Assembly: GCA_018823885.1 (NCBI GenBank)
Contig: JAHJHG010000009.1
Location: 783 to 64,782, forward strand
DNA length: 64,000 bases
Origin: Patescibacteria group bacterium
Lineage (GTDB): Bacteria > Patescibacteriota > Microgenomatia > UBA8517
Direction of reading: 5' to 3'
A program made the position numbers and the translations under genes. Below the pieces are notes generated by a model. The model was not told where the DNA came from, did not search any database, and saw nothing but the letters and a program-made list of their open reading frames with translations. This document shows, piece by piece, positions 3,499-46,218 of this stretch. The number at the start of each line of letters is the position of its first letter. Position 1 is the stretch's first letter.

Positions 3499-3500
3499 TT

Positions 3501-3728
3501 TTATAAAATAATTAGGGCAAGAACGAATATTACCAAAGAAAATACCAAATGAGAAATACCCAGCATTCTAATCGGTCCTTCAAAGCCTACTTCTAGAGTA
3601 TCGGTCATGAGCTGTATTTGCCTTAATACTACAAAAGCGAAAATACCATAAATTACTAGAGCAAAAAGAACCAACACTTTGGCTATTAGCCAAATTGATA
3701 CTCCAATAATCGGTAATACTTGGTTCAT
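3501..3728 (-). CDS. Small two-TM membrane protein (hypothetical)
   Basis: 75 aa, two hydrophobic helices, 4-nt overlap with the upstream gene. Confidence 0.35.
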   Translation of the reverse strand: MNQVLPIIGVSIWLIAKVLVLFALVIYGIFAFVVLRQIQLMTDTLEVGFEGPIRMLGISHLVFSLVIFVLALIIL

Positions 3729-4423: not shown

Positions 4424-4467
4424 TGCGGCCTGATTATATCACTTTATAGGCCTGTTTCATACAAAAA

Positions 4468-6277: not shown

Positions 6278-6988
6278 ATGAAAAAAATAACCATTACACT
6301 CGCCCTATTTTTGTTGATATTAATCTTTGTTCCAAAAAACATTTTTGCACAAGGAACATTTTCCTGCTACCAGCCAACGGCCAGCGTTCCCTGTGTTCCA
6401 GCAAATGTATATTGTGAAGAAGGGTATATCCCCGACACTAGTTATTGTAGTGCAAGGACAAACTCTAATTGCAACAATGTCCCTGCGACAACATGCATAG
6501 AAATACAGGGGCCAGAAACACAAACTGGCTGCTCTTCTGTCAGCACGGGCAGAACATATTGCACAACACAAGCTGCCCCTGGATATGGAGATATAGAAAT
6601 ATACTGTTCTACCAGTGATGAGTGTGAGAGCTATAAAGCAGAGCATCCATTAGAATCATCGGATAGTGAGTTTCCAACCTGTTTTACCGACGGCAAAAAA
6701 GGAATAAATACAGCTATCGGTTGTATCCCGATAGAAGACTCGAATTTGCTGATTGGTTTTATCTTAAAATGGGCCATTGGTGTTGGTGGAGGTATTGCTT
6801 TCCTATTAATCGTCCTTGCAGGTTTTCAAATAATGACCTCATCCGGCAACCCGGATAGATTAAAAGCAGGCCAAGAATTAATGACCTCGGCTATTGCAGG
6901 ATTAATACTTTTGATATTCTCTGTTTTTATATTAAAAATTATTGGAGTTGATATACTAGAATTACCAGGCTTTGGAGGAACACCATGA
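6278..6988 (+). CDS. T4SS pilin-like protein (VirB2/TrbC-type two-TM core) with about 120 aa Cys-rich N-terminal extracellular extension. First member of the paralog array.
   Basis: Signal peptide. At least 11 Cys in residues 30-130. C-terminal TM-SSGNPDRLKAGQEL-TM core shared with downstream paralogs. Stop overlaps the next start (ATGA). Confidence 0.6.
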   Translation: MKKITITLALFLLILIFVPKNIFAQGTFSCYQPTASVPCVPANVYCEEGYIPDTSYCSARTNSNCNNVPATTCIEIQGPETQTGCSSVSTGRTYCTTQAAPGYGDIEIYCSTSDECESYKAEHPLESSDSEFPTCFTDGKKGINTAIGCIPIEDSNLLIGFILKWAIGVGGGIAFLLIVLAGFQIMTSSGNPDRLKAGQELMTSAIAGLILLIFSVFILKIIGVDILELPGFGGTP

Positions 6989-7311
6989 AACTTGCACAAG
7001 ATTTAGAAGAAATTCAAAGTAAGGCATTACCTCAGTTTGAATTCTCGGGAGAACAAGGAGATATTGGAAATGTTGTCTCCAGTCTTATTAATTATCTTTT
7101 TCCATTGGCTGGAATCTTACTTCTTCTCTATCTTATCTATGGCGGATTTAGTCTAATGACCTCGGGTGGAGATCCAAAAGCGGTTCAAGGCGCAAAAAGT
7201 AAAATTACTAGTGCTCTAATTGGTTTCATAATCATTTTTGCGGCCTATTGGATAGTACAAATAGTTGCGTCAATTTTAGGAATCGAGGCAATAACAAATA
7301 TCTTCGGATAG
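6985..7311 (+). CDS. T4SS pilin-like small two-TM protein (paralog 2)
   Basis: Core LMTSGGDPKAVQGAKSKITSALIGFIIIFAAYWIVQ...GI. Confidence 0.65.
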   Translation: MKLAQDLEEIQSKALPQFEFSGEQGDIGNVVSSLINYLFPLAGILLLLYLIYGGFSLMTSGGDPKAVQGAKSKITSALIGFIIIFAAYWIVQIVASILGIEAITNIFG

Positions 7312-7349
7312 ATTTGCACCCTACCTCTTTTGCCTGCTAAACTTAAACC

Positions 7350-7670
7350 GTGAATAAATTAGCTGTTGAGATAGGAGAAAAGTTTTTTGGGGAAGGTTCC
7401 AATACACCATTAGCCGAAATCAGTGGGATTGGAACTCTTGTCTCCATTATCGTCAACGCCGCATTTGTTTTGGCAGGTATTATTTTGCTCTTCTTCTTTA
7501 TCTTCGGGGGAATTTCTATGATTGCAGGCGCCGGAAAAGATAATCCAGATCAAGCGGCAAAGGGAAAGCAGGCAATAACTTCTGCTCTTCTTGGTTTTAT
7601 TGTTGTTTTTGCCTCCTATTGGATAGTACAATTAATCGAACTTGTCACAGGAATCATTATTTTAGGATGA
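7350..7670 (+). CDS. T4SS pilin-like small two-TM protein (paralog 3, GTG start)
   Basis: Starts GTGAATAAATTAGC (MNKLA). Core AGKDNPDQAAKGKQAITSALLGFIVVFASYWIVQ. Confidence 0.6.
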   Translation: MNKLAVEIGEKFFGEGSNTPLAEISGIGTLVSIIVNAAFVLAGIILLFFFIFGGISMIAGAGKDNPDQAAKGKQAITSALLGFIVVFASYWIVQLIELVTGIIILG

Positions 7671-8023
7671 ATAAATTAGCAGAAAACAGTCCTTTTGGAT
7701 CCATAAATTTACCAGAAACTATAGAGAATAAATATCCCGGTGGAGTAGAAGGTGGGGCAATAGGAATCTTTCTAAACTGGACTATCAAGGCCCTTATTAT
7801 TGGTGCCGGGGTATATGCTCTCTTTAATCTTGTTCTTGCCGGATATGCTTTCATGTCTGCTGGAGATGATCCCAAAAAAATGGCTGGTGCCTGGGCAAAG
7901 ATATGGCAAACTCTTTTGGGGCTTGCTTTTGCCGCTGGCGCCTTCGTCTTAGCCGCTATATTTGGACAACTGATATTTGGAGATCCAACTTTTATACTTA
8001 ACCCAACAATACCGACACCATGA
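7667..8023 (+). CDS. T4SS pilin-like small two-TM protein (paralog 4)
   Basis: Starts ATGAATAAATTAGC (MNKLA), overlapping the previous stop (ATGA). Core SAGDDPKKMAGAWAKIWQTLLGLAF. Confidence 0.6.
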   Translation: MNKLAENSPFGSINLPETIENKYPGGVEGGAIGIFLNWTIKALIIGAGVYALFNLVLAGYAFMSAGDDPKKMAGAWAKIWQTLLGLAFAAGAFVLAAIFGQLIFGDPTFILNPTIPTP

Positions 8024-8385
8024 ATAAATTAGCTGATATAAACCTGGCGCCCGAGGGAGGATTTAAAGGATTTGGTGCCCTGGGGTTAGAAGAAGGACAG
8101 AGCGCTCCAGCAGTATTTACAAAATTCATCTCCAGCGTTATTGGACTAATGACAATTATCGCCATTATCTGGTTTGTTCTTCTGATGATAATGGGGGCCA
8201 TTGGCATTATTAGTTCGGGGGGAGACAAAGCGGCGTTGGAATCTGCTAAAAAACGAATTACAACCGGAATTCTTGGCTTCGTCGTCGTTATTGCCGCTAT
8301 TTTTATTGTCCAATTAATAGGAAAACTGATAGGAATACCGAATATATTAGATCTGCCTGTCTTGTTAGAAGGAATTCAACAATAG
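8020..8385 (+). CDS. T4SS pilin-like small two-TM protein (paralog 5)
   Basis: Starts ATGAATAAATTAGC (MNKLA), ATGA overlap. Core SSGGDKAALESAKKRITTGILGFVVVIAAIFIVQ. Confidence 0.65.
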   Translation: MNKLADINLAPEGGFKGFGALGLEEGQSAPAVFTKFISSVIGLMTIIAIIWFVLLMIMGAIGIISSGGDKAALESAKKRITTGILGFVVVIAAIFIVQLIGKLIGIPNILDLPVLLEGIQQ

Positions 8386-8726
8386 TGAATTATCTTGCTC
8401 AAGATTCAATAGAAAATCCCGTCTTAGGCCCCTCTTTGCAAACAAAAACCGGTGTTGGGTTTTTCCAAGATCTTTTACCCAGAATGGTCGGTCTGGCTTT
8501 CCTTGTAGGTGTGCTTATCTTTTTCTTTGTCATGATAATGGGGGCGATTCAATGGATCACTTCTGGAGGAGATAAAGCAGGGATCGAGTTAGCCAGAGGA
8601 AAAATAACAAATGCTATTGTCGGAGTGGTTATTCTTCTCTCCCTTTTTGCTCTACTTAAAGTCCTTGAGGACTTTTTTGGAATAAACATACTTGCCCTTG
8701 ACATAGGGCCGCTTATGATTCAATAA
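8385..8726 (+). CDS. T4SS pilin-like small two-TM protein (paralog 6, GTG start overlapping previous stop)
   Basis: Core TSGGDKAGIELARGKITNAIVGVVILLSLF...FGI. Confidence 0.6.
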   Translation: MNYLAQDSIENPVLGPSLQTKTGVGFFQDLLPRMVGLAFLVGVLIFFFVMIMGAIQWITSGGDKAGIELARGKITNAIVGVVILLSLFALLKVLEDFFGINILALDIGPLMIQ

Positions 8727-8736
8727 TATACGCAGA

Positions 8737-9087
8737 ATGCTTAACTTTTTGTATTCAACCGCCGTTCTCGCAGCCGACGACATAAATCTTAGCCCCACAG
8801 GGGAATTTTCGGCTCTTGGTGACTTAACAATTGGCGGAATTGTTTCAGCTTTTATCCGATTAATTCTAGTTGTTGCCGCCTTGGTATTTTTCTTCATTCT
8901 TGTTATCGGAGGAATCAGGTGGATTGCCTCAGGTGGAGATAAGGCTCAAACCGAAACAGCCAGAAATCAAATTACGGCCGCACTTGTTGGATTGGTTATC
9001 GTTTTTGCCGCTTGGGCCATTGTTCAACTAATAAATACCTTCTTCGGTATTGACATTTTCAGTCTTACCCTCCCAACGGCACAATAA
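8737..9087 (+). CDS. T4SS pilin-like small two-TM protein (paralog 7)
   Basis: Core ASGGDKAQTETARNQITAALVGLVIVFAAWAIVQ...FGI. Confidence 0.65.
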   Translation: MLNFLYSTAVLAADDINLSPTGEFSALGDLTIGGIVSAFIRLILVVAALVFFFILVIGGIRWIASGGDKAQTETARNQITAALVGLVIVFAAWAIVQLINTFFGIDIFSLTLPTAQ

Positions 9088-9156
9088 AACAGGCTTGCTC
9101 CAATTACTTCATTAAGTTAAACTTTAAGTCGAAAAGTATTGGTATCTTTTTGCATC

Positions 9157-9486
9157 ATGAATAAAATTATTAGTACTGTATTGGCTGCTGAAATTGAAAC
9201 AGTGGATGATGTTGCCACACTTCAAGGCTTTGAAGGAGTTTTTGAAAACATAGTAACCATCGTCCTAGGATTTGGAGGTATTATTCTTTTCATCATGCTT
9301 ATAATGGGAGGGTTTCGATTTATAACCGCTGGTGGAGACCCCAAGGCAATCGAAGGTGCAAAAAAAACCTTAACTTATGCTATCGGAGGCATTGTTCTTG
9401 TTGCTCTTTCATTTCTAATCCTCAGATTTATTTCCACCTTTACCGGAGTCGATGTCACTCAATTTAAAATATTTCAAGGAAATTAA
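9157..9486 (+). CDS. T4SS pilin-like small two-TM protein (paralog 8). Likely start at MNKIIS.
   Basis: Core TAGGDPKAIEGAKKTLTYAIGGIVLVALSFLIL...TGV. Confidence 0.6.
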   Translation: MNKIISTVLAAEIETVDDVATLQGFEGVFENIVTIVLGFGGIILFIMLIMGGFRFITAGGDPKAIEGAKKTLTYAIGGIVLVALSFLILRFISTFTGVDVTQFKIFQGN

Positions 9487-9499
9487 CTTCAAAACAAAA

Positions 9500-11869
9500 A
9501 TGCACAAGCTGCCCAAGAAGCCTGTTAATAAAGAATGTTTTTCCCTGATTCTATTGTTTATATTTTTCTTTCTTGCTCTTGGGTTCTTTGTATCGAAAGC
9601 AAAAGCCCAAATCCCAAATCCTCCGGTTCCCTGCGATGAAACACGAAATGATGAGTTTCATTCTTTGAGGCCCTATCAAGCCAGCCCCTGTGATGACAAA
9701 GCGGACACCGCTCTTTTTTGTGGAAATGATTTAATTGTTGCCGATACGATCACTGTTACTAAAAATCAAGCAACATCATGCGAATCTCTATCTAGTGGAA
9801 AGGAAAAGTGTAGTTTTACAACAAGTAACTCAAAAAATATTAGGATTGATTTATCAAGTGCCGATTTTCCTATTCTAGGTAATACCGAAAGTGTCGTAAA
9901 TATTGACAAAGATGCTGATGATTCTGGATTTGATGATGTAGGAAAAACAAATGAATACGTTAGCTGGTATCTAAACGGCACCATAAATCGCGCCGAGTAT
10001 GAGTTTCTAAACCCAAGCGAAAAACAAGACATCAGCAAGCTTATAGATTTTTCTGGCCCCATCAACAAACTTCTTCCATGGGAACAACAAGTAGCATACA
10101 GAATAAACACAATCAAACAAACTGGCGCAACGCGTCATGATCAAATAATTGCTTGTACTGTTGCGGGTGTTCCCGTTCCTTGCTATCACCAAGGACTACT
10201 CGAAATAATCGATACAAAACACCGACTTTCTGACTGGGAAGGGAAAATCACAAATTTACCAACACTGCCTGGTACTTGGAACGAAAGGGTACCTCCTCAA
10301 AGAAAAGATTTTGAAAATTTTCTAAACTACTGGGAAGCTTACAGGGAGTGGAGGGGCAATAGTTGTGGCCAATTTACAATTCCAATAATAAACAAACGTG
10401 TTCTTCTCTGCTCTCCTATTGACAATCCACTTAGGCCAAATTACTGGGCGGATCTATTTCCCTATGTTCCTTTTTCTTCAACGGAAGACCAGCTTGGGTT
10501 TGTTGAAACACAAACCTTGACCGCTTATTCTCCATCGGAAGATGTTACTTTAAAAGAAGTTTTATTTGATAATCAGGAACCAGCGGAACTCTTCTTTGCT
10601 CACACAGAAGAAGTTGCAGAGTTGGCTAGTATTTTGCAAAAAACGTTCGCTCCACAAGGTGCGGAAAACAATCTGTCATTTTCAGGTGTTTCTCCTACTG
10701 AATACTGTGATCTTGTAAATGTCCGTACAAACGAAGGGGATGATCTTTTTGCCGGAGAAATAGGTGGAGTACTTTCATACACCGCTGAATTTACGTGCGA
10801 ACTTGAACCAGGAGCAAGCAATGCTTGCGAAAGCGCAGGAGGAGAATGCATAAATACTCCCAGTTGTATCCGTGTCGGCAAAGGAACTGTGAATGGAGGC
10901 TCTGGGTGCAATACAGTAAACGAGACCTGCTGTGCACGAGAAGAGCCATTGTCTGGACAGGAGTGCACAAAAGAAATATACGCTAATTTGTCTGTTATAA
11001 CAAAAACCCCTAAGGTGAATGAAATTTGGGCAAGAACCGTAGCTGGACCATCATCAATTTTTAAAAGAATATTTCCCAAGATAGGAGAGGGTGGGGCTAT
11101 CTTGGGATTATTAGATATTCCCGGCGCAACAAACGTTACCTATTCAGGTGATGGCCTTGTCTACGCTGGCAATCCAGGAAACGAACGTTCTGGAGAATCT
11201 GCTGAACTATACTTCCCGCACGTTGGAGGGGTATCTGAATATTTCTTGAAAGGAATTCAAACTATTCTTCGACCAAAAGGCTTTGGGGAACAAATTCTTT
11301 CTGGTCAACCAGGAACAGAGTCGCCCGTACAAGAATGTAATCAAGATATTTCTAATTCGGCAATCCCCTCAAAATATCTGGGAGCATTCAAAGAAAACTT
11401 CATTCGCATGGCGAGAGATTGGAGTGAGAAGACTGAATGCCAGGGGCTTGAAAATACGATGGCGGATGAATGTTATAACGACGTTGTTAAGCGCTCTGTT
11501 GATAAAGGAGTAAATCCTGCCTTCACCTTAACCATCTGGCTTAATGAAACTGGTGCCAGTAATTATTGCGAGAGTGGGTCAACGGCTCAGGACTTTGGTA
11601 TTAGAATTCCATCTATCTTCCAAAACTTTGGAGAACAACTTGATCATTTTTTGGGTTTGCCTTTCAGTGGTACTTATGTCTCTTGCTCCAATGAAGCTGG
11701 TTGGGATAATAGAATACATGCTTTTCTCAGTAGATTTCGATCAGGCGGTTGTGATCCAACGGACAGTGAAGGAAATATCTATTACAACCACATTAAAGAA
11801 ACAACTTGGCCTTGGGTATCAAATTGTTCAAATCTCCCTAGTTGGCCAACAGACACGAGTTGTCCTTAA
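9500..11869 (+). CDS. Large secreted Cys-rich protein of unknown function (about 790 aa). Candidate pilus-associated adhesin or tip protein.
   Basis: Signal peptide MHKLPKKPVNKECFSLILLFIFFFLALGFFVSKAKAQ. More than 30 Cys including a dense cluster CESAGGECINTPSCIRVGKGTVNGGSGCNTVNETCCA. No TM after the signal peptide. Sits between the pilin array and the VirB6-like gene. Confidence 0.55.
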   Translation: MHKLPKKPVNKECFSLILLFIFFFLALGFFVSKAKAQIPNPPVPCDETRNDEFHSLRPYQASPCDDKADTALFCGNDLIVADTITVTKNQATSCESLSSGKEKCSFTTSNSKNIRIDLSSADFPILGNTESVVNIDKDADDSGFDDVGKTNEYVSWYLNGTINRAEYEFLNPSEKQDISKLIDFSGPINKLLPWEQQVAYRINTIKQTGATRHDQIIACTVAGVPVPCYHQGLLEIIDTKHRLSDWEGKITNLPTLPGTWNERVPPQRKDFENFLNYWEAYREWRGNSCGQFTIPIINKRVLLCSPIDNPLRPNYWADLFPYVPFSSTEDQLGFVETQTLTAYSPSEDVTLKEVLFDNQEPAELFFAHTEEVAELASILQKTFAPQGAENNLSFSGVSPTEYCDLVNVRTNEGDDLFAGEIGGVLSYTAEFTCELEPGASNACESAGGECINTPSCIRVGKGTVNGGSGCNTVNETCCAREEPLSGQECTKEIYANLSVITKTPKVNEIWARTVAGPSSIFKRIFPKIGEGGAILGLLDIPGATNVTYSGDGLVYAGNPGNERSGESAELYFPHVGGVSEYFLKGIQTILRPKGFGEQILSGQPGTESPVQECNQDISNSAIPSKYLGAFKENFIRMARDWSEKTECQGLENTMADECYNDVVKRSVDKGVNPAFTLTIWLNETGASNYCESGSTAQDFGIRIPSIFQNFGEQLDHFLGLPFSGTYVSCSNEAGWDNRIHAFLSRFRSGGCDPTDSEGNIYYNHIKETTWPWVSNCSNLPSWPTDTSCP

Positions 11870-11919
11870 ATGGTGTGTTGTTGACCCTACATTCGTATTG
11901 TATGATTAAAATAATAAGT

Positions 11920-13488
11920 ATGTTCAAGAAAGTTATTGTCTCGTTTATATTAGTCTTCTTGCTTTTTGCTGCATTAGTAACTCCCAATGCAAAAGCTCAG
12001 GGAGGAGGAAATTGGTATAATCAATCTTTTGAAGAGTGGTCTGCAAAGGTTTTTGATGACAGTAACCCTCAAGAAATATTTGGGGAAAGATATACCTATG
12101 CGCAGGTAACTTGGATCTTACACTCTCTACAGGCTTTTGCGTATGGAGACGATTTGATTAATTGTGTTAATGTTTCAAACGGAGATTTAAATGAAATTAA
12201 AGATTGTGTGAAAGGACTTCAAGAATCAAGTTCATTTATTAATAGCCCCGTATTGGCGATTGGTGCTTTTGGAGATTCTGTTCTTTCTCTTCATCCGGCG
12301 TCAGGTGTTGAATATGTCGCGGACACTGCTTCCAGGCTAAAAATAATTCCAAGTGCTTATGCGCAAGGAATTGGATTTGAAGGATTACAGCCGGCCCTAA
12401 AAGCGTGGAAGGTAACACGCAATATGACCTATGCTCTTTCTATTCTCGCCGTGATCGTTATGTCTTTTATGATTATGTTTAGGGTAAAAATTTCACCACA
12501 AGTAGTAATCACTGTTCAATCTGCACTCCCTAAAATTATTATTGCTTTAATACTTATCACTTTTTCTTATGCCATTGCTGGCTTTATTATTGATATTTCC
12601 TATCTTCTTCTGGGAATCATTGCTGCATTAGTTACATCCTCCGGGGTGGATATTTCTAGTTTGAACATGATACCGTTTTTCAACACATTCGTAATGGGTT
12701 CCGGCCTTTTTTGGTCTCTCATACTAACGCAGTTGTTATTTTTATTATTGTTCGGGATAACTGGAGCGCTAGTAGGAGCTCTTTTCGCCGTTCCCACTGG
12801 AGGATTGTCAATTGCCATTGGGGGTGGTATTGGAGCTATTCTTTTTCTCCTACTCATTGTTCTGATGATTTTTGCCAGCATAAAAATTCTCTGGCTTTTG
12901 GTAAAAACCACCATCAACATCCTTCTTCTTATTATCGCTGCTCCAATAATGATTTTAGCAGGAACGTTTTCGTCAGGAATAGGGTTTGGACCTTGGTTAA
13001 GACAACTTGTAGCCAATGTTGCCGTATTTCCAATGGTTCGAATCATGTTGTTCTTAGCCCATTATTTCTTTTGGGGAATGCGCATGACACAAGAGGTCGA
13101 TCTTGCCGGGTGGACTGCCGTCAATCCTTTGGGAATTCTTCCTTCTGGAGGAGAAATGGCTGTCCTGCCCGGCTATCTTCCTTTTAGCGTCGGAACCGGA
13201 CTTTTAGGTTGGATTCTCTCTTTCGGCGTGTTTTTCTTAACACCTAAGATCGGTGATATAATCAAGTCCATGATTGAAGGCAAACCATTCGCTTATGGAA
13301 CGGCTATCGGAGAGGCTGTTGGACCAATAGGCGCCGCTTGGGGATCAACCCCTGCACGTCTTGGCAAAGAAGCTGTTATTAGAGGGGGTGGTACAGAAAT
13401 TGCAAGCAGACTGAGAACAAAAGGGAAACTAGCAACTCAAATAGGAGACCAGCTTGACAATATTCTTAATTCAAAAAGGGGTTCTTAG
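11920..13488 (+). CDS. VirB6/TrbL-like polytopic membrane protein (T4SS inner-membrane channel component)
   Basis: Signal peptide, about 160 aa extracytoplasmic domain, then at least 6 TM helices and a Gly-rich C-terminal tail. Position and topology typical of VirB6/TcpH. Confidence 0.55.
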   Translation: MFKKVIVSFILVFLLFAALVTPNAKAQGGGNWYNQSFEEWSAKVFDDSNPQEIFGERYTYAQVTWILHSLQAFAYGDDLINCVNVSNGDLNEIKDCVKGLQESSSFINSPVLAIGAFGDSVLSLHPASGVEYVADTASRLKIIPSAYAQGIGFEGLQPALKAWKVTRNMTYALSILAVIVMSFMIMFRVKISPQVVITVQSALPKIIIALILITFSYAIAGFIIDISYLLLGIIAALVTSSGVDISSLNMIPFFNTFVMGSGLFWSLILTQLLFLLLFGITGALVGALFAVPTGGLSIAIGGGIGAILFLLLIVLMIFASIKILWLLVKTTINILLLIIAAPIMILAGTFSSGIGFGPWLRQLVANVAVFPMVRIMLFLAHYFFWGMRMTQEVDLAGWTAVNPLGILPSGGEMAVLPGYLPFSVGTGLLGWILSFGVFFLTPKIGDIIKSMIEGKPFAYGTAIGEAVGPIGAAWGSTPARLGKEAVIRGGGTEIASRLRTKGKLATQIGDQLDNILNSKRGS

Positions 13489-15809: not shown

Positions 15810-15859
15810 AATAGGAATATTTTAGCATCCTCTATTCCAACTTACAATTCCTTGACTTT

Positions 15860-16606
15860 GTGTATTATGGGCTGTACAATCGCAAGCAAATGAGTTTTGA
15901 GCAAGAAATATCTTGGCTGAAAAAAACCAAAGAAGCCAAAGATGCGTTAGAAGGACAACGAAAAATCAAAGCCGAGACAGCGGAATTGAAACGCTTAAGA
16001 TGGATAGAAGAAAGAACTGCACAGTTTGCGCCCCATAAATCAACTGCGTTGCGTTTTCTCAAAAGATGGAATGAACTAGAAATCGATAAACTTATCGAGG
16101 ATCTTCACAGTTTTAGTACTAGCACTAATAATTATGGCAAACCCACTAATACTTTTGTTGTATTCCAAAATCTAAACGTCGATCGACATTCTAAGGAGAA
16201 GAAAACACAATTTTTGAACTTGAAACAGTATGAAAAAGGCTGGTGTGTCGAACAAGAAGATAATTGTTTTCCAACAATCAGTGAGGTTTTAGCCAACAGC
16301 AAACTCATCAGAAACTTGGAACCAAACAAAATAATATTTTCTCATATCTACAAAGCGTGTCATACATTTATAGAAGAACGTGATTGTCTCGATGACACCT
16401 ATTCTAGCTACGCAAGAATTGACTTTAGCATAAAAATGTCTCCTTATGAAATTATTGTCTTCCACCCAAGAATTTCTCATAAAAGGAGCTTGGTATCGTT
16501 AGAAGAACTACAAAATAGCGGAGATCTGGCCCAAAGATTGGATAGATTTTTAGCAGAACAGTACAGTAAGCAGGCCCCGGCAGAGACAGAAAATAAGATT
16601 CAATAA
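15860..16606 (+). CDS. Hypothetical cytoplasmic protein (248 aa)
   Basis: ORF with no recognisable motifs. Lies between the 774-aa gene and the VirB3-like gene. Confidence 0.4.
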   Translation: MYYGLYNRKQMSFEQEISWLKKTKEAKDALEGQRKIKAETAELKRLRWIEERTAQFAPHKSTALRFLKRWNELEIDKLIEDLHSFSTSTNNYGKPTNTFVVFQNLNVDRHSKEKKTQFLNLKQYEKGWCVEQEDNCFPTISEVLANSKLIRNLEPNKIIFSHIYKACHTFIEERDCLDDTYSSYARIDFSIKMSPYEIIVFHPRISHKRSLVSLEELQNSGDLAQRLDRFLAEQYSKQAPAETENKIQ

Positions 16607-16742
16607 TATTACTTCAAATTTCAGTACTTAATTCGCCCAAGCACTTTGCTACATCATTTGTGTGAAAAGCTGGTCTACTTGAAATAGCTTCTTCACGCAG
16701 TACTCTTAATTAAGGGTTAAAACTATATAACTCACCCTATCT

Positions 16743-17786
16743 ATGGATCAACAACACCCTATACCGCAACAAATATCTTCCTACCAGTTTAAGTTGGTAG
16801 GAAATATGACTTTAAAGCAATTTTTCCAAATAGCGGGAGGAGCTCTGTTTTCTCTTCTTTTCTATGCATCAAATCTTCACCCCGTTATCAAATGGCCTCT
16901 TGTAATATTTTTTGCTCTTTTTGGAGCCGCTCTTGCTTTTCTTCCCTTTGAAGAAAGACCTCTTGAGCAATGGGTTATTTCATTTTTCAAAGCAGTCTAT
17001 ACTCCTACTACCTATTTTTGGGGGAAAACGACCAAGCCTCCTGTGTTTTTTAAAGAAGAAGCGTCTGTGCCCCAAGAGCATGTTGTTGCCCCACATGGAG
17101 AGAAAGAATTGGAAAAATACTTGCAGAGTCTTCCAGGGCGAGGCACTTCCGTATTTTCCAAACTCGAAGAGGCTGAAAATACTTTCCTTTCAAAACTTAC
17201 TAGGCTTTTCGGAAGTGGCGGAACAAGAGCGATTGAAACCCCCTCTTCAGCCGCTATGGCTCAACATACCCCGCAAGAGAAACAGCAAGAAATGACTGTG
17301 CCGCAAAACATACCAACTGTTATTCCGCAAGGATATAAGCCCAGGGTTGTGGTTGAAGAAAAAAAACCACTACTTCAAAATCAACAGCCAGCAGAAGCAA
17401 AAACTTCCACCGTTGCCAAGACGTTCACTGCTCAAGAAGTGATATCGGGACAAGCCGCCCAGTTCTCCGTCAATGCAGCTCCTCCACTTCCCCCTGAGAA
17501 GCCTAATACACTAACTGGTCAGGTTGTCGATGCTGGTGGCAAAATCATTGAAAGTGCAATACTCGAAATCAGAGATGTTGCCGGCCGACCTGTTAGAGCC
17601 GTCAAAACAAACAAAGTGGGGCACTTCATAATTGTTACCCCATTACAAGATGGGCGATACGAAATTATAAGCGAGAAGGAAGGGCTTAATTTTGAGCCAT
17701 TAACCTTTGAAGCAACCGGGAGCATTATTCCACCAATTGCGATAAGGTCTAAAAATAAAATTCCCACACCAATAATAATTAATTAA
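16743..17786 (+). CDS. Membrane protein with VirB3/PrgI-like N-terminal two-TM hairpin, Pro/Gln-rich linker and C-terminal carboxypeptidase-regulatory-like (Ig-like) domain
   Basis: N-terminus MTLKQFFQIAGGALFSLLFY...VIFFALFGAALAFLPFEERPLEQW. C-terminus GQVVDAGGKIIESAILEIRDVAGRPVRAVKTNKVGHFIIVTPLQDGRYEI. Directly upstream of the VirB4 ORFs. Confidence 0.45.
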   Translation: MDQQHPIPQQISSYQFKLVGNMTLKQFFQIAGGALFSLLFYASNLHPVIKWPLVIFFALFGAALAFLPFEERPLEQWVISFFKAVYTPTTYFWGKTTKPPVFFKEEASVPQEHVVAPHGEKELEKYLQSLPGRGTSVFSKLEEAENTFLSKLTRLFGSGGTRAIETPSSAAMAQHTPQEKQQEMTVPQNIPTVIPQGYKPRVVVEEKKPLLQNQQPAEAKTSTVAKTFTAQEVISGQAAQFSVNAAPPLPPEKPNTLTGQVVDAGGKIIESAILEIRDVAGRPVRAVKTNKVGHFIIVTPLQDGRYEIISEKEGLNFEPLTFEATGSIIPPIAIRSKNKIPTPIIIN

Positions 17787-17787
17787 T

Positions 17788-18447
17788 ATGAAAATTCCTT
17801 TTATTAGCATACCAGATAAGCCAATATCAGCAATTTCTCAAAAACATTTGCCGATTGCCGATATTGTTGATGACCTGGTTTTGTACAAAGATGGAGGTGC
17901 GGCAATTATCTTGGAAACTACCTCCCTTAACTTTGGTCTTTTGTCCGAAAAGGAGCAACAAGCTGTTATTGCCGCCTATGCTGCTCTTCTCAACTCTCTT
18001 TCTTTTGCTATCCAAATAGTTATTCGCTCTCAAAGAAAAGATATCTCGAGCTATATGAAATATCTTGATGAGGCTTCAAACAAAATTCAAAACCCAAAGC
18101 TTATTGAAATCATGACGGGTTACAAAAACTTTGTTTCTGAAACGATAAAGAAAAAAAATGTTCTGGGAAAAAGATTTTTTATTGTCATTCCGTTTAGCGC
18201 TTTAGAGCTTGGTGTAACGAAATCTGTTCTTTCGATTGCAAAAAAAGGCCCACTTCCATACCCCAAAACCTACGCAATTAAAAAAGCCAAAGTTTCTCTC
18301 TATCCAAAAAGAGACCATCTTATCAGACAAGCCGGGAGATTAAGTATAAAACTAAAACAACTCTCCACTGCGGAATTAATAGAGCTTTTCTATGACATTT
18401 ATAACCCAGAAATGCCAGCAGTTAAAAGCAAGGAGGACACCGTATAG
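17788..18447 (+). CDS. VirB4/TrbE N-terminal-domain-like protein (219 aa). Either a separately encoded N-domain or the 5' part of a split virB4.
   Basis: LPIADIVDDLVLYKDGGAAIILE..NFGLLSEKEQQAVIAAYAALLNSL..IQIVIRSQRKD aligns with the VirB4 N-terminal block (LPY.GHLSDHIVLLEDGS...FELEE.E.RN....NTLLRN...VSIYAHLVRH). Stop lies 1 nt before the ATG of the ATPase ORF. Confidence 0.45.
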   Translation: MKIPFISIPDKPISAISQKHLPIADIVDDLVLYKDGGAAIILETTSLNFGLLSEKEQQAVIAAYAALLNSLSFAIQIVIRSQRKDISSYMKYLDEASNKIQNPKLIEIMTGYKNFVSETIKKKNVLGKRFFIVIPFSALELGVTKSVLSIAKKGPLPYPKTYAIKKAKVSLYPKRDHLIRQAGRLSIKLKQLSTAELIELFYDIYNPEMPAVKSKEDTV

Positions 18448-18448
18448 T

Positions 18449-20410
18449 ATGGACGTACCAGGTTTTTTGAAAAAGAAACAGACAATCCAAGAGGACGCAG
18501 CACAAACAAGTGCCAGTGTGTCTTTACCTCAATCTCAAAATGTTGACAACACACCACCCCCCAATGGTGAGGTTGCTCAAAACAATACTCCAACAAAAAA
18601 ACCACCCATTCCTTCTCCCACCATTGCCTTTAGTCAAAAACAAATGCCCCTTATAGACATTCTTGCTCCTCAATCAATGGAAGTTGATTTTGGCTTTATT
18701 AAAATAAACAATGTCTATTTTAGAACTCTCTTCATCGCCGGATATCCAAGATTTGTTTCCCCTGGGTGGTTAGAACCAATCGTCAATTTTGATAATTCTT
18801 TAGATATTTCATTTAACATTTATCCTGTTGCCGGGAAAACAGTTCTCGACGATTTGAGACGAAAAATTGCCGAGATGGAGGCTGAAATAGCCACTGACCT
18901 CGAAAGGGGAAAAATCGTTGATCCTTCAACCCAAGCAAAACTAGAAGATGCAAGAACGTTGCAAGAACAATTGGTAAAAGGATCTGAGCGCTATTTTGAA
19001 TTTTCTCTCTATATAACCATCCCCGCTCCCTCTCTGGAAGAATTAAACCAAATTACCCGCCAAATCGAATCAACTCTTGGTTCTCTTTTGATCGTTGGCA
19101 AAAGAGCCACTCTTGATATGGAAAAAGGATTTCTTTCGTCAGCCCCTTTTGGAAGAGATGTCCTCTCAATTACAAGAAATATGGATACCACTTCTTTGGC
19201 AACCACTTTTCCGTTAACTTCTGCTGAATTATCCTCCGACAAAGGCGTACTTTATGGCATTAATTCACAAAATGATTCTTTCATTATCTTCGACAGATTT
19301 TCGCTGGAAAACAGCAACATGACTATCTTTGCTACCTCGGGTGCCGGAAAAAGTTATTTTGTTAAATTAGAAGCCTTAAGATCTTTAATGCTCGGAACGG
19401 AGGTTATTGTCATCGACCCTGAAAGCGAATACGAAGCATTGGCTGGTGCAGTTGGTGGACAATTTGTCTCTTTTTCATTTAACTCTCCGTCTAAAATTAA
19501 TCCTTTTGACCTAACTCAAATCTACGAAGAGGGAGAAAATCAGCTAGGATTAAAAATCCTAACTCTTCATTCTCTTTTTAAGGTCATCATGGGGCAATTG
19601 AATGCTACCCAAGAAGCCCTTCTTGATCGAGCCTTGGTGGCAACATACAGAGCAAAAGGAATAACTCAAGACCCAGCAACCCAAAAAAGAGAACCTCCTT
19701 TAATGGAAGATCTTTACAAAATTTTAATGGGTATGGAGACCGCGGAAGCAAAAGACTTGGCAGCAAGAATTGAAAAGTTTGTAAAAGGAAGTTTTGTCGG
19801 CATGTTTGATCAGCAAACAAGCGTCGAGATAAAAAACCCTTTTGTTGTTTTCTCTGTTAAAGATCTGCAAGAAGCACTCAGACCAATTGCCATGTTTATC
19901 ATCTTGGATTTCATTTGGACAAGAGTAAGAAGAGATATTAAAAGAAGGTTGCTGATCGTCGATGAGGCTTGGCACATGATGCGATATGAAGACTCTGCTC
20001 AATTCCTCTGGAGCGTTGTTAAAAGAGCAAGGAAATACTTTCTAGGATTGACCACTATAACGCAAGATGTAGAAGATTTCTTGAGTCAAGACATCGGTAA
20101 AGCTATCGTTACAAACTCGGCTCTTAGGCTTCTCCTTAAGCAGTCTCCTGCGGCAATAGACAAGATCGGCGAAGTCTTTTATTTATCTCAGGGAGAAAAA
20201 CAACTCTTAATGGGGGCGAACATTGGGGAAGGAATCTTTTTTGCTGGACCCCACCATGCACCAATAAGTGTCGTCGCATCCAAAGAAGAACATAAATTGA
20301 TCGATTCAAGGCCTCAGGAAAAGACATTCAATGAAAATGTTGATTCAAGACCTTTTGCAACAACAGAACAAGTTACTCAAAGGAATCAATATGACAGAAA
20401 CCCTCAATAA
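18449..20410 (+). CDS. virB4: T4SS ATPase VirB4/TrbE/CagE family
   Basis: Walker A FATSGAGKSYF. Walker B RLLIVDEAWHMM. RBS AAGGAGGA about 12 nt upstream of ATG 18449. N-terminal Pro/Thr/Gln-rich low-complexity stretch, then a GYPRFVSPGWLEP block. Confidence 0.8.
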   Translation: MDVPGFLKKKQTIQEDAAQTSASVSLPQSQNVDNTPPPNGEVAQNNTPTKKPPIPSPTIAFSQKQMPLIDILAPQSMEVDFGFIKINNVYFRTLFIAGYPRFVSPGWLEPIVNFDNSLDISFNIYPVAGKTVLDDLRRKIAEMEAEIATDLERGKIVDPSTQAKLEDARTLQEQLVKGSERYFEFSLYITIPAPSLEELNQITRQIESTLGSLLIVGKRATLDMEKGFLSSAPFGRDVLSITRNMDTTSLATTFPLTSAELSSDKGVLYGINSQNDSFIIFDRFSLENSNMTIFATSGAGKSYFVKLEALRSLMLGTEVIVIDPESEYEALAGAVGGQFVSFSFNSPSKINPFDLTQIYEEGENQLGLKILTLHSLFKVIMGQLNATQEALLDRALVATYRAKGITQDPATQKREPPLMEDLYKILMGMETAEAKDLAARIEKFVKGSFVGMFDQQTSVEIKNPFVVFSVKDLQEALRPIAMFIILDFIWTRVRRDIKRRLLIVDEAWHMMRYEDSAQFLWSVVKRARKYFLGLTTITQDVEDFLSQDIGKAIVTNSALRLLLKQSPAAIDKIGEVFYLSQGEKQLLMGANIGEGIFFAGPHHAPISVVASKEEHKLIDSRPQEKTFNENVDSRPFATTEQVTQRNQYDRNPQ

Positions 20411-22391
20411 AATACTGGTCCCGGTAAGCAAAAGAACCGTTAACTTCCTTCATCGGGGTCTTAAGGTTTTTTACCCAGAGATTGTTTTTGGAAGGAAGGA
20501 TGGTAAAAAAATAACTGTTCCTAATTTTTGGCCCGAGGGCGGATATATAAAATCAGATTTTGCCGAACTTCTAAAGAAAACGACGAAAAAAAATGATATT
20601 GATCAAGCTATAAAGATTGTTCTTGAATGGAAAAACCTGTGGGATGAAGGTACACAGCCTGACGATACTATTCCGGAAATTCTTGACGATCTGGTTTCCT
20701 CCATGGATGAAAATGCGACCGGGGAGAAGAAGTTAAGTTCCTACGACAAGCAAGCCCTGGCCAAAAAAACACTACTGGAAAGCCAAAAACAGATTGAAAA
20801 ATCCATATCTATACCAGAACCTATACCTGCTACCTCATCTTCCACAGTCGTATCAAGAACCGCTGGTCGATTTCTATCGGCACCCTATAGAGCCGCCACC
20901 TATCTTTCAGGTCCTACAACCTATTCGAGTTCTGCAAAAGAGGAAGGTCCAGGTACTGCAACGGCGAGATATATGATGAGCCACGGAATATCAAGCGCTT
21001 CGATTCGATCGCTTGGGAATAAAGCTCAACAACTAGGAATTACACCAAGTCAGTTAAATAACCTCGCGAACTTAATTAAGACAGAACAAGAAGCACATCC
21101 TTTTAGTCATAAATGGATTTCTAGAATCTACAGCAGACAAGCTGGTCTGTCTGAATCTCAAGTCGCCTCCTTCCTTATACCATCTGCTGATGGTTCAACC
21201 GCTGTGTTGCCAAGAAAATCGTTTGTGGGAAATGTTATTGGACGGATTGGACAACAACTCTTTGGAAAAGTTTCTTCAAAAGCATTTAAAGCAGTGGGCA
21301 AAAAAGTTGCCGCAAAGGTGACAACAACCGCTGCCGCACAAGCTATCGGAGCGGTAGTGGCTCCAGGACTAGCAAATATTGCCCTTCTTGTTGTAGGAAA
21401 AATAAAAGATTTTATTTCCAGTCTTAAGACAAAGGAGGGCAAAGAAAGGATCCTTGCATTAATTTCTGGGGCGATGTTTCTTGGCGGCATTACCCTTGGC
21501 GGACTTTTAGGAGCCGCCCTTGTTGTTGGTGGTTTTATTTCAGGAGTCGGCTTATTAGCAGCAAAAGCAGGGGGCTTTGGTCTTTTAGGAGCAAGTATTG
21601 GAAGTTTTGGACAAGCGTTTATGGCTGGCCTAACTGGTGTTGTTTTTCCTTCTATTGCAGCCCCACTTATAATCTCTTTTATTTCTATCCCTGTCATGAT
21701 TGCTATCATTCTATTTATTATTAATTCCGGTGCATACATTGTTCCTCCTAGTCCTTTTTCTGAGTCTTCGTTTGCCGGCTTCCCAATAGAATGCACTACA
21801 GAAAAATTACCGGTTTCGCTTCCAAAACCGACAACTTCACTAATTACCGTAAGGGCTTGGGAAATAACGTCGGATCTTTACCAAGGCTTTTGGTGCTACT
21901 GGAATCGTTCTCCAGGAGATTTCCCCGAAGATGTCACTCTTTATCCACCAAGCTACCCTGATTTATTTAATGAAGTATATTTTGAGAAAGACCCTTTTCC
22001 ATCACCGACAGAGGCCTCAAAATGTGGAAATTGTTTGTTTTGGTGTACTTATCTCGTACAAAAAGCCTATCGAGAAACTGGAAACACAGATATTATGATC
22101 ACTCTTTGGTCACCAACAATGTACGAAGATTTTTTAAGGAGGGGAAAAATTATTGTGTCCTCTGAAGCTACTCCTGAAAATGTTGTTTCGGGTAGTGTTA
22201 TTTTCTTTCAGGTTCTTTCAGGGCAAAATAGAATTAATCACGTAGGTATCGTTCATTCAACTACTAAGGACAGTATTCAATATATCCAATCGAACGCGCC
22301 AACTAAAGATGGTTCTCTTACTTTTAGTTTGTCAGGAATAGGAATTCAAGATCTACCTGGTATCAAAATTGTTGGAATCGGATTACCTTAA
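20391..22391 (+). CDS. T4SS-associated cell-wall hydrolase. N-terminal soluble region, Gly/Ala-rich multi-TM region and C-terminal CHAP (Cys-His amidase/peptidase) domain. Likely a PrgK/TraG/VirB1 functional analog.
   Basis: Start ATG 20391 with AGGA RBS, overlapping the virB4 stop. CHAP catalytic Cys in KCGNCLFWCTYLVQKAY and His in INHVGIVHS. Long GxxxG-rich hydrophobic stretch in residues about 320-470. Confidence 0.6.
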   Translation: MTETLNKILVPVSKRTVNFLHRGLKVFYPEIVFGRKDGKKITVPNFWPEGGYIKSDFAELLKKTTKKNDIDQAIKIVLEWKNLWDEGTQPDDTIPEILDDLVSSMDENATGEKKLSSYDKQALAKKTLLESQKQIEKSISIPEPIPATSSSTVVSRTAGRFLSAPYRAATYLSGPTTYSSSAKEEGPGTATARYMMSHGISSASIRSLGNKAQQLGITPSQLNNLANLIKTEQEAHPFSHKWISRIYSRQAGLSESQVASFLIPSADGSTAVLPRKSFVGNVIGRIGQQLFGKVSSKAFKAVGKKVAAKVTTTAAAQAIGAVVAPGLANIALLVVGKIKDFISSLKTKEGKERILALISGAMFLGGITLGGLLGAALVVGGFISGVGLLAAKAGGFGLLGASIGSFGQAFMAGLTGVVFPSIAAPLIISFISIPVMIAIILFIINSGAYIVPPSPFSESSFAGFPIECTTEKLPVSLPKPTTSLITVRAWEITSDLYQGFWCYWNRSPGDFPEDVTLYPPSYPDLFNEVYFEKDPFPSPTEASKCGNCLFWCTYLVQKAYRETGNTDIMITLWSPTMYEDFLRRGKIIVSSEATPENVVSGSVIFFQVLSGQNRINHVGIVHSTTKDSIQYIQSNAPTKDGSLTFSLSGIGIQDLPGIKIVGIGLP

Positions 22392-23035
22392 TGTTTAAGA
22401 AAAAAAATGCCATCATTATTGTTTTTGTTATCTTGATTATTGTTTTTGTTTTCCTTCAAATAAAAACTCAGTCTCCCAAAGTGATAGCGACTCAACCTGA
22501 AGATGGCTCTATCCATGTCTCTCAAGAAACTGATCTTTCTATTCTTTTTGATAAAGCATTAAATGATAAAAACATTAAAAAAATTAGTCTTGAGATCACA
22601 CCAAAAGAGGACTTTGGGCTTGTTTTTTCAGAAAAAGCAATGATTGTTTCTTTTATAAACAATCTTCAACCCGACACTCTTTACTCTATTGTTGTTAAGT
22701 ATAATAGCAAACCTATTTACAATTTTTCTTTTGAAACAACACCATTTACCGACGAAATTATTTCTAAAGAAGGGGCACTTCAATCTATTGACGATTCAAT
22801 CTTTGGCGAGGCTTTTGAAAATTTCATCGAAAATTATCCTTGGTATGTTCATCTTCCGATTGAAAATAGTCAATATCGTATTGTTTACGATTTTGAACGA
22901 AAATCTTTTAGAATAAGAGTTCTCGTTCCCGACTTAGATCCAGAACAAGAAGAAGTGTTTATTGAAAATGCTATTGAAAATCTAAAAACAATTGGTTTAA
23001 TTGAACCTATTAATTACTACGTTATAAAAGAGTAA
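22391..23035 (+). CDS. Bitopic membrane protein with extracytoplasmic Ig-like domain. Possible VirB8-position T4SS component.
   Basis: N-terminal TM IIIVFVILIIVFVFL, then IATQPEDGSIHVSQETDLSILFDKAL Ig-like block. Start overlaps the stop of the hydrolase gene. Confidence 0.4.
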   Translation: MFKKKNAIIIVFVILIIVFVFLQIKTQSPKVIATQPEDGSIHVSQETDLSILFDKALNDKNIKKISLEITPKEDFGLVFSEKAMIVSFINNLQPDTLYSIVVKYNSKPIYNFSFETTPFTDEIISKEGALQSIDDSIFGEAFENFIENYPWYVHLPIENSQYRIVYDFERKSFRIRVLVPDLDPEQEEVFIENAIENLKTIGLIEPINYYVIKE

Positions 23036-24151: not shown

Positions 24152-24416
24152 TTTGTTTATCTTTCTTTCGCATTATATGAACAATAAATAATAAAGGCAA
24201 GATGTTTCCAAAATGTATTTTATTAGTTTTTATTATATGCTGTTCTTTCTTTATATAAATTAGTAGTAATAGTAGTAGGGTTTGTTGATAAGTGGAAAAG
24301 TACGCCTACGTAGGCTGGTGATTGATTGTTTATATTAAACATAGTTAATTGTGGATATAAATGTGGATAAAATTACGATTATTGTTGATAAGTGGAGAAA
24401 CTTGATGGGTTTATCC
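24152..24416. promoter_or_regulatory. Candidate oriC: DnaA-box cluster plus AT-rich unwinding element in the dnaA-dnaN spacer
   Basis: Consensus DnaA box TGTGGATAA at 24362-24370. One-mismatch boxes TGTGGATAT (24350-24358) and TTATCCTCA (about 24408). Exact 15-mer TTGTTGATAAGTGGA duplicated at 24282-24296 and 24383-24397. AT-rich stretch with (TAG)n-like repeats at 24217-24278. Confidence 0.55.
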
Positions 24417-46175: not shown

Positions 46176-46218
46176 TTATAATCCGAAGGAAATGTGAAGT
46201 TAAGGATCAAAGTAAGGG

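Follow-up and report, generated by a model that had tools for sequence, protein, structure and literature searches.

The closest described counterparts of the locus reported here are the chromosomal type IV secretion systems (T4SSs) of Patescibacteria. The locus occupies positions 6278-23035 of a 64,000-nt stretch of contig JAHJHG010000009.1 from a Patescibacteria group bacterium (Microgenomatia, UBA8517); the whole stretch is referred to below as the window, and all coordinates are positions in it. In Southlakia epibionticum, the homologous cluster SEML1_0006-0019 was found by transposon sequencing (Tn-seq) to be essential for epibiotic growth; as described by Wang et al. (2023, PMC10633639), the cluster contains pilin genes and no recognisable coupling or relaxase proteins, and protein export or another non-DNA role was suggested for it. 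The survey of 3,035 genomes by Quinonero-Coronel et al. (2025, PMC12102498) reported VirB4 in 2,417 of them, the Patescibacteria proteins forming a monophyletic clade nested in MPF_FATA. According to the same survey, TrsD, VirB3 and VirB6 are encoded near virB4, TrsD being the most abundant component beside it, and VirB2 arrays of 2-11 genes with an average identity of 25% occur especially in Microgenomatia and Saccharimonadia; almost no relaxases are reported there, and proximity to dnaA and dnaN is frequent.

The function of these systems has been discussed in several recent articles. A 2024 perspective described the role as "completely unknown" and cited both effector delivery and ComB-like uptake (PMC11665869). 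A 2025 review counted T4SSs as "perhaps the most exciting newcomers" and speculated on T4SS and pilus as a conduit for signals or uptake (PMC12857230), and a 2026 preprint reported tubular structures, possibly T4SS pili, at the Patescibacteria-host interface acquiring host RNA (bioRxiv 10.64898/2026.06.21.733656). The functions named in the original prediction, which had been made from the letters of the window (pilus, host contact, ComB-like uptake), agree with those that PMC10633639, PMC11665869 and PMC12857230 discuss as proposals.

The locus is probably the Woesebacteria version of the nearly universal chromosomal T4SS of Patescibacteria, encoding a pilus or conduit that VirB4 would drive where symbiont and host meet. 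Its gene content points to a T4SS derived from monoderm MPF_FATA conjugation machinery, fixed at the replication origin and no longer carried in a mobile element. A pilus or conduit would be favoured over conjugation because the encoded parts are mostly of the pilus-biogenesis type and no coupling protein is encoded nearby; it is proposed to serve contact and macromolecule exchange, which may be inward (nucleic acids, nutrients) or outward (effectors). The description of the locus as a domesticated, non-conjugative T4SS-like nanomachine is borne out by synteny, by the conservation of VirB4 and by the lack of transfer genes in the 84 kb formed by the window and 10 kb beyond each of its ends. 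The features of the locus and of the adjoining origin are listed below; the eight pilins, the Cys-rich protein, PrgI, VirB4 and the bitopic Ig-like protein, all named in the original prediction, are encoded where it placed them, and the family matches are far beyond chance.

6278-6988, plus strand: pilin 1 (PF18895, 29.4 bits, residues 158-221; Cys positions)
6985-7311, plus strand: pilin 2, VirB2-like (PF18895, 39.4 bits; NF045849)
7350-7670, plus strand: pilin 3 (PF18895, 39.3 bits)
7667-8023, plus strand: pilin 4 (PF18895, 14.3 bits; alignment with paralogs)
8020-8385, plus strand: pilin 5 (PF18895, 24.2 bits; alignment)
8385-8726, plus strand: pilin 6 (PF18895, 23.9 bits; alignment)
8737-9087, plus strand: pilin 7 (PF18895, 36.3 bits)
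9157-9486, plus strand: pilin 8 (PF18895, 39.3 bits; gene call of 109 amino acids)
9452-11869, plus strand: secreted Cys-rich protein of 805 amino acids (hydrophobic N-terminal segment, Cys content, orthologs)
11920-13488, plus strand: VirB6-like polytopic membrane protein (AlphaFold2 model, Foldseek, conserved position)
13485-15809, minus strand: soluble, highly charged protein of 774 amino acids (no family match; AlphaFold2 model)
15860-16606, plus strand: open reading frame (ORF) of 248 amino acids (no family match; a gene of 238 amino acids also called, start uncertain)
16743-17786, plus strand: PrgI/VirB3-like membrane protein (PrgI and CarboxypepD_reg matches)
17788-18447, plus strand: TrsD-like protein of 219 amino acids (NF041427 and NF045975 matches)
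18449-20410, plus strand: VirB4 ATPase (NF045971, Pfam ATPase models, Walker motifs)
20391-22391, plus strand: membrane-anchored cell-wall hydrolase (sub-threshold CHAP; domains of orthologs)
22391-23035, plus strand: bitopic Ig-like (Big_5) protein (Big_5 match)
23036-24151, minus strand: dnaN (three DNA_pol3_beta domains)
24283-24495, no strand: DnaA-box cluster, probable oriC (DnaA-box-like matches, GC-skew minimum)

Homologous loci were collected in a scan with one genome per species. The resulting 80 loci are nearly all labelled Woesebacteria, Microgenomates or Patescibacteria, or carry placeholder names. The recurrent order is pilins, Cys-rich protein, VirB6-like protein, a large minus-strand gene, PrgI, TrsD, VirB4 and hydrolase, followed sometimes by Big_5 and then by dnaN, dnaA, rnpA and yidC, these last four in 60-66 of the 80 loci. 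The synteny comparison proposed together with the original prediction thus came out in its favour, the block being collinear in about 60 other Woesebacteria or Microgenomates species; absence of the cluster from most close relatives, an outcome that would have spoken against the interpretation given here, was checked, and the opposite was found. Median identities across these genomes are 76% for VirB4, 65% for TrsD, 47% for PrgI, 36% for the VirB6-like protein and 35% for the Cys-rich protein, compared with 63% for DnaA, 60% for YidC and 54% for DnaN. VirB4 ranges from 66 to 86% identity across the 80 species, and in 62 of 64 genomes its identity is higher than that of DnaA. The cytoplasmic VirB4 motor is more strongly constrained than the replication initiator, and the extracellular parts evolve fast. 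This pattern is that expected of an essential, host-facing machine, and not of a decaying or recently acquired element.

The position beside oriC, as originally predicted, was confirmed. Both dnaN and dnaA adjoin the locus, dnaN directly; the window contains 24 DnaA-box-like matches, 7 of which form a cluster at 24283-24495 that spans the dnaA-dnaN spacer and reaches into the 5' end of dnaA; and the cumulative GC skew is lowest at 22-26 kb. The locus is located at the replication origin. Genes for VirD4, VirB11, a relaxase or an integrase were not found by Pfam in the 64 kb, nor in a further 10 kb on either side taken from the source contigs, where their discovery would have spoken for an ordinary integrative and conjugative element (ICE). 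The repeat search of the locus returned no hairpin-type inverted repeats and no flanking direct repeats; candidates for oriT-like repeats were rejected, as they consisted only of distant chance pairs and of repeats due to pilin paralogy. On all these absences the earlier statement (no VirD4, VirB11, relaxase, oriT-like repeats or integrase) holds across the window. Its further statement that no tRNA flanks the locus needs qualification: a tmRNA gene lies at 727-1099 (minus strand), 5 kb upstream, and the part that stands is that no integrase or repeats accompany it. Genes for tmRNA are common island insertion sites.

That the locus is an ordinary ICE, or the decaying remnant of one, with transfer genes nearby or recently lost, is highly improbable. 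The tmRNA gene, the slightly higher G+C content of the locus (0.41-0.43 vs approximately 0.38), and the membership of VirB4, PrgI, TrsD and the pilins in families whose annotation comes from conjugative elements would fit such an origin. They are outweighed by the lack of integrase, relaxase and coupling protein genes in 84 kb, by the lack of flanking direct or hairpin-type repeats, by the recurrence of the same dnaN/dnaA-adjacent block in 60-66 of 80 species-level genomes, and by the conservation of VirB4 above DnaA, which is the opposite of what a decaying remnant would show. Synteny on this scale, together with the lack of transfer and integration genes, supports a vertically inherited chromosomal block, fixed beside oriC.

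The energising part of the predicted Woesebacteria T4SS is encoded by three consecutive genes. The protein encoded at 16743-17786 passes the PrgI model (28.8 bits, cut-off 27), carries a C-terminal CarboxypepD_reg-like beta-sandwich (E 3.5e-5) and was found in 78 of the 80 loci. VirB4 is matched by P-loop_TraG (E 9.5e-30), CagE_TrbE_VirB (25.6 bits, cut-off 21), AAA_10, which also passes, and NCBIfam NF045971, the CD1110 family (380 bits, cut-off 325), and has a Walker A motif (ATSGAGKS) at residue 314 and a Walker B motif (LLIVDE) at residue 520. Its ORF opens at 18392 (672 amino acids); the likely start is 18449, directly past the stop of the TrsD-like gene and equivalent to the 653-amino-acid form of the nearest VirB4 cluster representative, or 18644, given a gene call of 588 amino acids, homologs being mostly about 580-600 amino acids long. 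A total of 7991 database homologs were retrieved, and all those with an organism name among the matches listed are Woesebacteria, Microgenomates or Patescibacteria (73-100% identity). The best matches outside Patescibacteria, in a plasmid collection, are from Bacillota and Actinomycetota and are about 37% identical. Membership in the CD1110/MPF_FATA family, together with the phyla of the best plasmid relatives, supports the assignment of VirB4 to the MPF_FATA type and of the locus to a monoderm-type system. No VirB7/9/10-type domains were found by Pfam in the 64-kb window or in the 10 kb on either side, in line with the earlier expectation of a system without such outer-membrane components. 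Among the VirB4 homologs, one (P0109, 1163 amino acids) contains intein-splicing and LAGLIDADG domains, and is thus an intein-containing VirB4.

VirB4 had originally been described as an ATPase with clear Walker A and B motifs that is split into two ORFs. The ATPase and its motifs are as described, and the supposed split is a conserved, separate gene for a TrsD-like protein, present in all 80 loci. A frameshifted or broken VirB4, represented by the ORFs of 219 and 672 amino acids, is ruled out, as only about two of the 80 loci depart from the division into two genes; in those two, one of them L071:9239-11983, the TrsD-family match is a single long ORF (914 and 869 amino acids), which is the size of TrsD plus VirB4. 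The TrsD-like protein matches NF041427 TrsD with E 1.1e-7, below the family cut-off. Against NF045975, a model of the fused VirB4 of Mycoplasma ICEs, PrgI aligns at positions 4-160, the TrsD-like protein at 106-283 (E 1.8e-8) and VirB4 at 289-893, and in the VirB4 of Bacillus cereus plasmid pJ62_2 (830 amino acids) residues 22-156 are matched by the profile of TrsD (E 9.8e-12) and residues 224-823 by that of VirB4 (E 1.8e-89). TrsD plus VirB4 thus correspond to one full-length VirB4 of the monoderm (Bacillota) type, and the division into two genes is ancestral and maintained. The TrsD profile matches the window VirB4 only marginally (E 0.058), because TrsD represents a region that the 672-amino-acid ORF lacks.

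VirB4 also gave weak matches to the ATPases CedB (E 4.5e-13) and CedD of the archaeal Ced import system. These are one reason for considering that the T4SS is an uptake machine, like ComB or Ced, importing nucleic acids or building blocks from the host or the medium, a possibility which is regarded as unlikely although several observations are in keeping with it. The locus encodes no coupling protein or relaxase, and ComB likewise works without them (PMC11665869); Patescibacteria lack nucleotide synthesis, reviewers have proposed T4SS-mediated uptake (PMC11665869, PMC12857230), and the acquisition of host RNA has been tied to putative T4SS pili in the 2026 preprint (bioRxiv 10.64898/2026.06.21.733656). 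The Ced scores, however, fall well short of the curated cut-offs and of the score against conjugative VirB4, the window has no competence genes next to the locus, and the VirB7/9/10-type envelope core of a ComB-type system was not found there. S. epibionticum is viable without comEC while its T4SS is essential, so import would not proceed via ComEC (PMC12857230).

The pilin array at 6278-9486 consists of eight ORFs, all of which match Pfam PF18895 (T4SS_pilin, gathering score 26.6 bits). Five of them pass this score (29-39 bits) and pilins 5 and 6 are just below it. Pilin 4 is the most divergent paralog, yet both of its hydrophobic helices align with those of the others, and its start, giving 118 amino acids, agrees with the gene call. 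In the alignment of the eight, the paralogs are 21-29% identical to the first and share two hydrophobic helices with an SGGDPK-type loop between them. Pilin 1 has a signal peptide followed by a Cys-rich domain of about 130 residues (12 Cys) and a C-terminal VirB2-like pilin domain. Pilin 2 passes NCBIfam NF045849, the pilin-like conjugal transfer family of Mbov_0395 from a Mycoplasma ICE (43 bits, cut-off 40), and it alone is scored by TrbC (PF04956, 21.4 bits, cut-off 27.9). By these profile matches the window pilins would be members of PF18895 and NF045849, and not TrbC proper. Most of the paralogs have a similar short N-terminus instead of a classical long signal peptide, and the start-region DNA ATGAATAAATTAGC (peptide MNKLA) is common to three pilin genes (7347-7365, 7664-7682 and 8017-8035). 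A further pilin-type gene was observed at 58030-58491 (plus strand), after rmuC; its small product has a prepilin N-methylation motif, which marks it as a type IV pilin or pseudopilin, and is part of a filament system other than that of the T4SS pilins.

A filament that merely tethers the cell to its host, without transport, would account for the multiple divergent pilins and Cys-rich extracellular proteins, which suggest a variable surface, and for the fact that most of the encoded parts are ones assigned to pilus biogenesis in Gram-negative systems (PMC12857230). This explanation is nevertheless quite improbable. Adhesion and motility of Patescibacteria are already served by type IV pili (PMC11665869), and the prepilin-type gene just mentioned is encoded in the same window; moreover, a single redundant adhesin would hardly account for the extreme conservation of VirB4 or for the essentiality of the cluster in S. 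epibionticum.

The polytopic protein encoded at 11920-13488 had been called VirB6/TrbL-like. Recovery by hidden Markov models (HMMs) failed, as no match was obtained in Pfam (for which 25 family members were also searched), NCBIfam or a PDB profile search, and it is at the level of the fold that the name found support. The architecture comprises a signal or anchor segment, an extracytoplasmic helical domain with two conserved Cys and a multi-helix membrane core. In an AlphaFold2 model (72 sequences; mean predicted local distance difference test (pLDDT) 80, good in the membrane core), the five best Foldseek matches among 350,542 PDB chains are stalk chains of R388 TrwJ/VirB5-TrwI/VirB6. The gene is present in 58 loci in unchanged position, and none of the 1098 database members of the family is annotated. 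By this structural match, which is statistically weak, the polytopic protein is a likely VirB6. VirB6 homologues were reported to be scarce in Microgenomatia, extreme divergence being suspected (PMC12102498), and the family described here is a good candidate, on the strength of the predicted fold, for the VirB6 missing from such surveys.

Two further proteins of the locus are predicted to act on the cell wall. The first, recognised originally as a large Cys-rich secreted protein, has an N-terminal hydrophobic segment, 27 Cys in its 805 residues and orthologs in 44 loci; to that description a probable lysozyme-like C-terminal domain can be added. Pfam SLT_3 ("lysozyme like domain") is matched by 2 of 25 orthologs (1.2e-4), and the sole PDB match of the family profile is to the lytic transglycosylase MltC at its catalytic Glu-Ser motif, where the window protein reads WLNETGASNY and keeps the Glu; the match itself is not significant (E 1.3). 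The C-terminus is probably a muramidase domain of the VirB1 type. The second is encoded directly after VirB4 and has about five transmembrane segments and a C-terminal CHAP-like domain. It had been identified as a CHAP cell-wall hydrolase; the CHAP score is below threshold (17.6 bits, cut-off 26), with a Cys568/His637 pair present, and the hydrolase part of the identification is upheld by the domains of its orthologs. Positional orthologs occur in 65 loci and share the membrane core, and their catalytic ends differ: of 25 orthologs searched, Peptidase_M23 was identified in 12, CHAP in 2 and Amidase_2 in 1. By analogy with PrgK and TraG of Gram-positive conjugation, the conserved role would be the cutting of peptidoglycan, which would make this protein the VirB1/PrgK analog. 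The last protein of the locus is bitopic, with an extracytoplasmic Ig-like domain (Big_5, 30.3 bits) and a C-terminal alpha/beta domain; the 17 loci that have it encode either a long or a short form.

From these parts a working model of the Woesebacteria T4SS may be proposed. PrgI/VirB3, the TrsD-like protein and VirB4 would form an energising complex in the membrane, and the VirB6-like protein would be the channel or the platform for assembly. The cell's own wall would be opened by the CHAP-like hydrolase and by the lysozyme-like tail of the Cys-rich protein, and VirB4 would extract the VirB2-like pilins from the membrane and polymerise them, so that a filament or tube is built outside the cell. 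A variable, disulfide-stabilised surface for contact with the host could then be provided by the eight divergent pilins, by the pilin fused to a Cys-rich domain and perhaps by the secreted Cys-rich protein.

Several points weigh against this interpretation. VirB8-like and VirB5-like proteins were not identified at the locus. A coupling protein may be encoded elsewhere in the genome, outside the 84 kb searched, and VirD4 homologues are in fact reported to be distant from virB4 in most Patescibacteria covered by the survey (PMC12102498). Conjugative T4SSs of monoderms carry related pilin-annotated genes, so that pilins alone do not oppose DNA transfer. The CHAP and SLT assignments in the window genome are below curated thresholds, and the structural match of the VirB6-like protein is weak (Foldseek probability 0.80-0.93, E 0.07-0.35, template modelling score 0.35-0.45). 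Finally, for Woesebacteria we infer the pilus, its assembly by VirB4 and any transport from the genes.

Neither of the two genes of the locus originally listed as having unknown function (13485-16606) has a family match. The gene at 13485-15809 is convergent with the VirB6-like gene and overlaps its stop (13488). Of the 57 loci that have both the virB6-like gene and prgI, 56 have a minus-strand ORF of 526-1083 amino acids in the slot between these neighbours. Signal peptides are absent from the slot proteins and hydrophobic segments nearly so, and all are rich in acidic and basic residues; none of 59 contains a Pfam domain at E <1e-4. For the 774-amino-acid protein of the window, no match was obtained in a sequence search of Pfam, NCBIfam or PDB, and its AlphaFold2 model (pLDDT 91.8; predicted template modelling score (pTM) 0.92) has no informative relative among solved structures and no recognisable enzymatic or toxin fold. 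The slot proteins split into groups without detectable similarity (BLAST clusters of 27 and 24; hhalign E 0.5-0.9), and the family of the window protein numbers only 84 representative clusters among 1.84 billion proteins. The occupants of the slot have diverged, or have been replaced, beyond profile-level recognition. The 248-amino-acid ORF, which matches no family in Pfam or NCBIfam, is lineage-specific, with one weak match among the 80 loci (33% over 75 amino acids, at the same position in L015).

The 774-amino-acid protein may, rather doubtfully, be a lineage-specific partner of the T4SS, either a translocated effector or a cytoplasmic adaptor that replaces the coupling protein. Export of effectors into the host cell, with the 13485-15809 protein as substrate, is improbable as the function of the system as a whole. 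A large soluble protein in 56 of 57 slots that diverges beyond recognition is what would be expected of a host-facing effector, and effector delivery is cited as speculation in PMC11665869 and PMC10633639. The C-terminal tails of the slot proteins are mostly positive: their last 30 residues carry a mean net charge of +2.2, compared with -0.5 in internal windows, and in 51 of 59 proteins the tail ranks higher than the median internal window of the protein concerned, while in soluble control ORFs from the same loci the charge averages about 0; this is a weak signal from proteins that are not independent of one another. On the other side, most effector-translocating T4SSs need a coupling protein and none is encoded at the locus, and no enzymatic or toxin fold can be recognised in the model. 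The pilus or conduit for contact and exchange remains the preferred interpretation.

The surroundings of the locus are those of a chromosomal core region. The dnaN product has identical counterparts on contig JAHIYB010000001.1 (253 kb, assembly GCA_018815075.1) and on several metagenome contigs, and from the organism names of the best VirB4 homologs the window is read as chromosomal DNA of a Woesebacteria-like member of the Patescibacteria. Housekeeping genes in the window comprise smpB, tmRNA, dnaN, dnaA, rnpA, yidD, yidC, the gene for ribosomal protein L25, those for class I tRNA synthetases, tsaD and those for GroES/GroEL, and cell-wall glycosyltransferase genes are also present. Between smpB and the pilins, a minus-strand block (1552-6204) encodes a SpoIID-like protein with a coiled-coil N-terminus, a membrane protein of 232 amino acids, a DUF5657 protein (75 amino acids) and a single-transmembrane protein of 648 amino acids with beta-propeller-like repeats. 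This block looks like one with cell-envelope functions; it carries no T4SS signatures and was left out as a candidate part of the T4SS. A free-standing LAGLIDADG-like ORF at 45504-46175 (minus strand) is located directly beside tRNA-Cys (46217-46289, minus strand). Consensus scans yielded 41 promoter-like matches vs 42 in shuffled sequence and 26 terminator-like matches vs 17, and no pattern was evident.

This type of locus has already been published, in 2023 and 2025, including the missing relaxase, the pilin arrays and the proximity to dnaA/dnaN (PMC10633639, PMC12102498). The window is one more instance of a described system and its novelty is low. The interest lies in the system itself, as the Patescibacteria T4SS is the first T4SS shown to be essential for its own bacterium, may be among the very few monoderm T4SSs that build a VirB2 pilus, and ranks among the leading candidates for the means by which these ultrasmall symbionts draw on their hosts. 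Of possible value to specialists are the VirB6 candidate for Microgenomatia, the clear equivalence of TrsD plus VirB4 with one Bacillota VirB4, the pilin-bearing collinear clusters of Bacillota described below, and the conserved slot for a hypervariable cytoplasmic protein.

Among known systems outside Patescibacteria, ComB of Helicobacter pylori offers a functional precedent, being chromosomal and active without relaxase or coupling protein (PMC11665869). It differs in that it serves a diderm and has components of the VirB7/9/10 type, which were not found in the window, and the only homology seen is that of the VirB4 superfamily. In Mycoplasma ICEs (Mbov_0395, Mbov_0397), VirB3, TrsD and VirB4 form one polypeptide encoded in a mobile element, whereas the window has three genes; against the Mbov_0397 model the window scores far below the cut-off (258 vs 590 bits). 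Closer are the MPF_FATA systems of the CD1110/CD1115 and pGO1/pCF10 type, the window VirB4 matching the CD1110 family as noted above. The B. cereus plasmid pJ62_2 (locus L088) has, in the same order, a gene annotated as pilin and genes for a small membrane protein, for VirB4 and for a lytic transglycosylase/C40 peptidase. Only the plasmid adds a VirD4-like coupling protein, an HMM-recognised TrbL-family protein, a replication initiation protein and an integrase; it is extrachromosomal and has one pilin gene, while the window has eight beside oriC.

The closest VirB4 in the plasmid collection (37.6% identity) is that of Pontibacillus sp. ALD_SL1 (locus L087), encoded at 351-361 kb of the 898-kb replicon NZ_CP062975.1. 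Its cluster is collinear with the locus: two pilin-like genes (E 1e-15 to 1e-17 with the window pilin profile) are followed by genes for a large protein and a PrgI-like protein, by a separate gene for a TrsD-like protein of 274 amino acids (E 5e-38) and by those for VirB4 and an M23 hydrolase. The replicon is typed as non-mobilizable, and the cluster lies beside flagellar genes and not oriC, has two pilins instead of eight, and includes a protein of 779 amino acids that is not matched by the window's VirB6-like profile. Because the Pontibacillus and pJ62_2 clusters contain such genes and the Mycoplasma-ICE pilin family is matched as well, two-helix pilin-like proteins are suggested to have existed already in part of the MPF_FATA class, which softens the view of VirB2-like pilins as exclusive to Patescibacteria among monoderms.

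The nearest match remains the Patescibacteria clade itself. As far as the published accounts describe it, an MPF_FATA VirB4 with adjacent TrsD, PrgI/VirB3 and a divergent pilin array, hydrolases beside virB4, the lack of a relaxase or coupling protein at the locus, and a position near dnaA/dnaN are common to both, and the average pilin identity of 25% in the survey (PMC12102498) matches the 21-29% of the window. The convergent gene for a large soluble protein and the differences in hydrolase domains were met in the window and not in the parts of those accounts that describe the locus. Nothing essential differs, and the window represents the Microgenomatia/Woesebacteria arrangement of this system.

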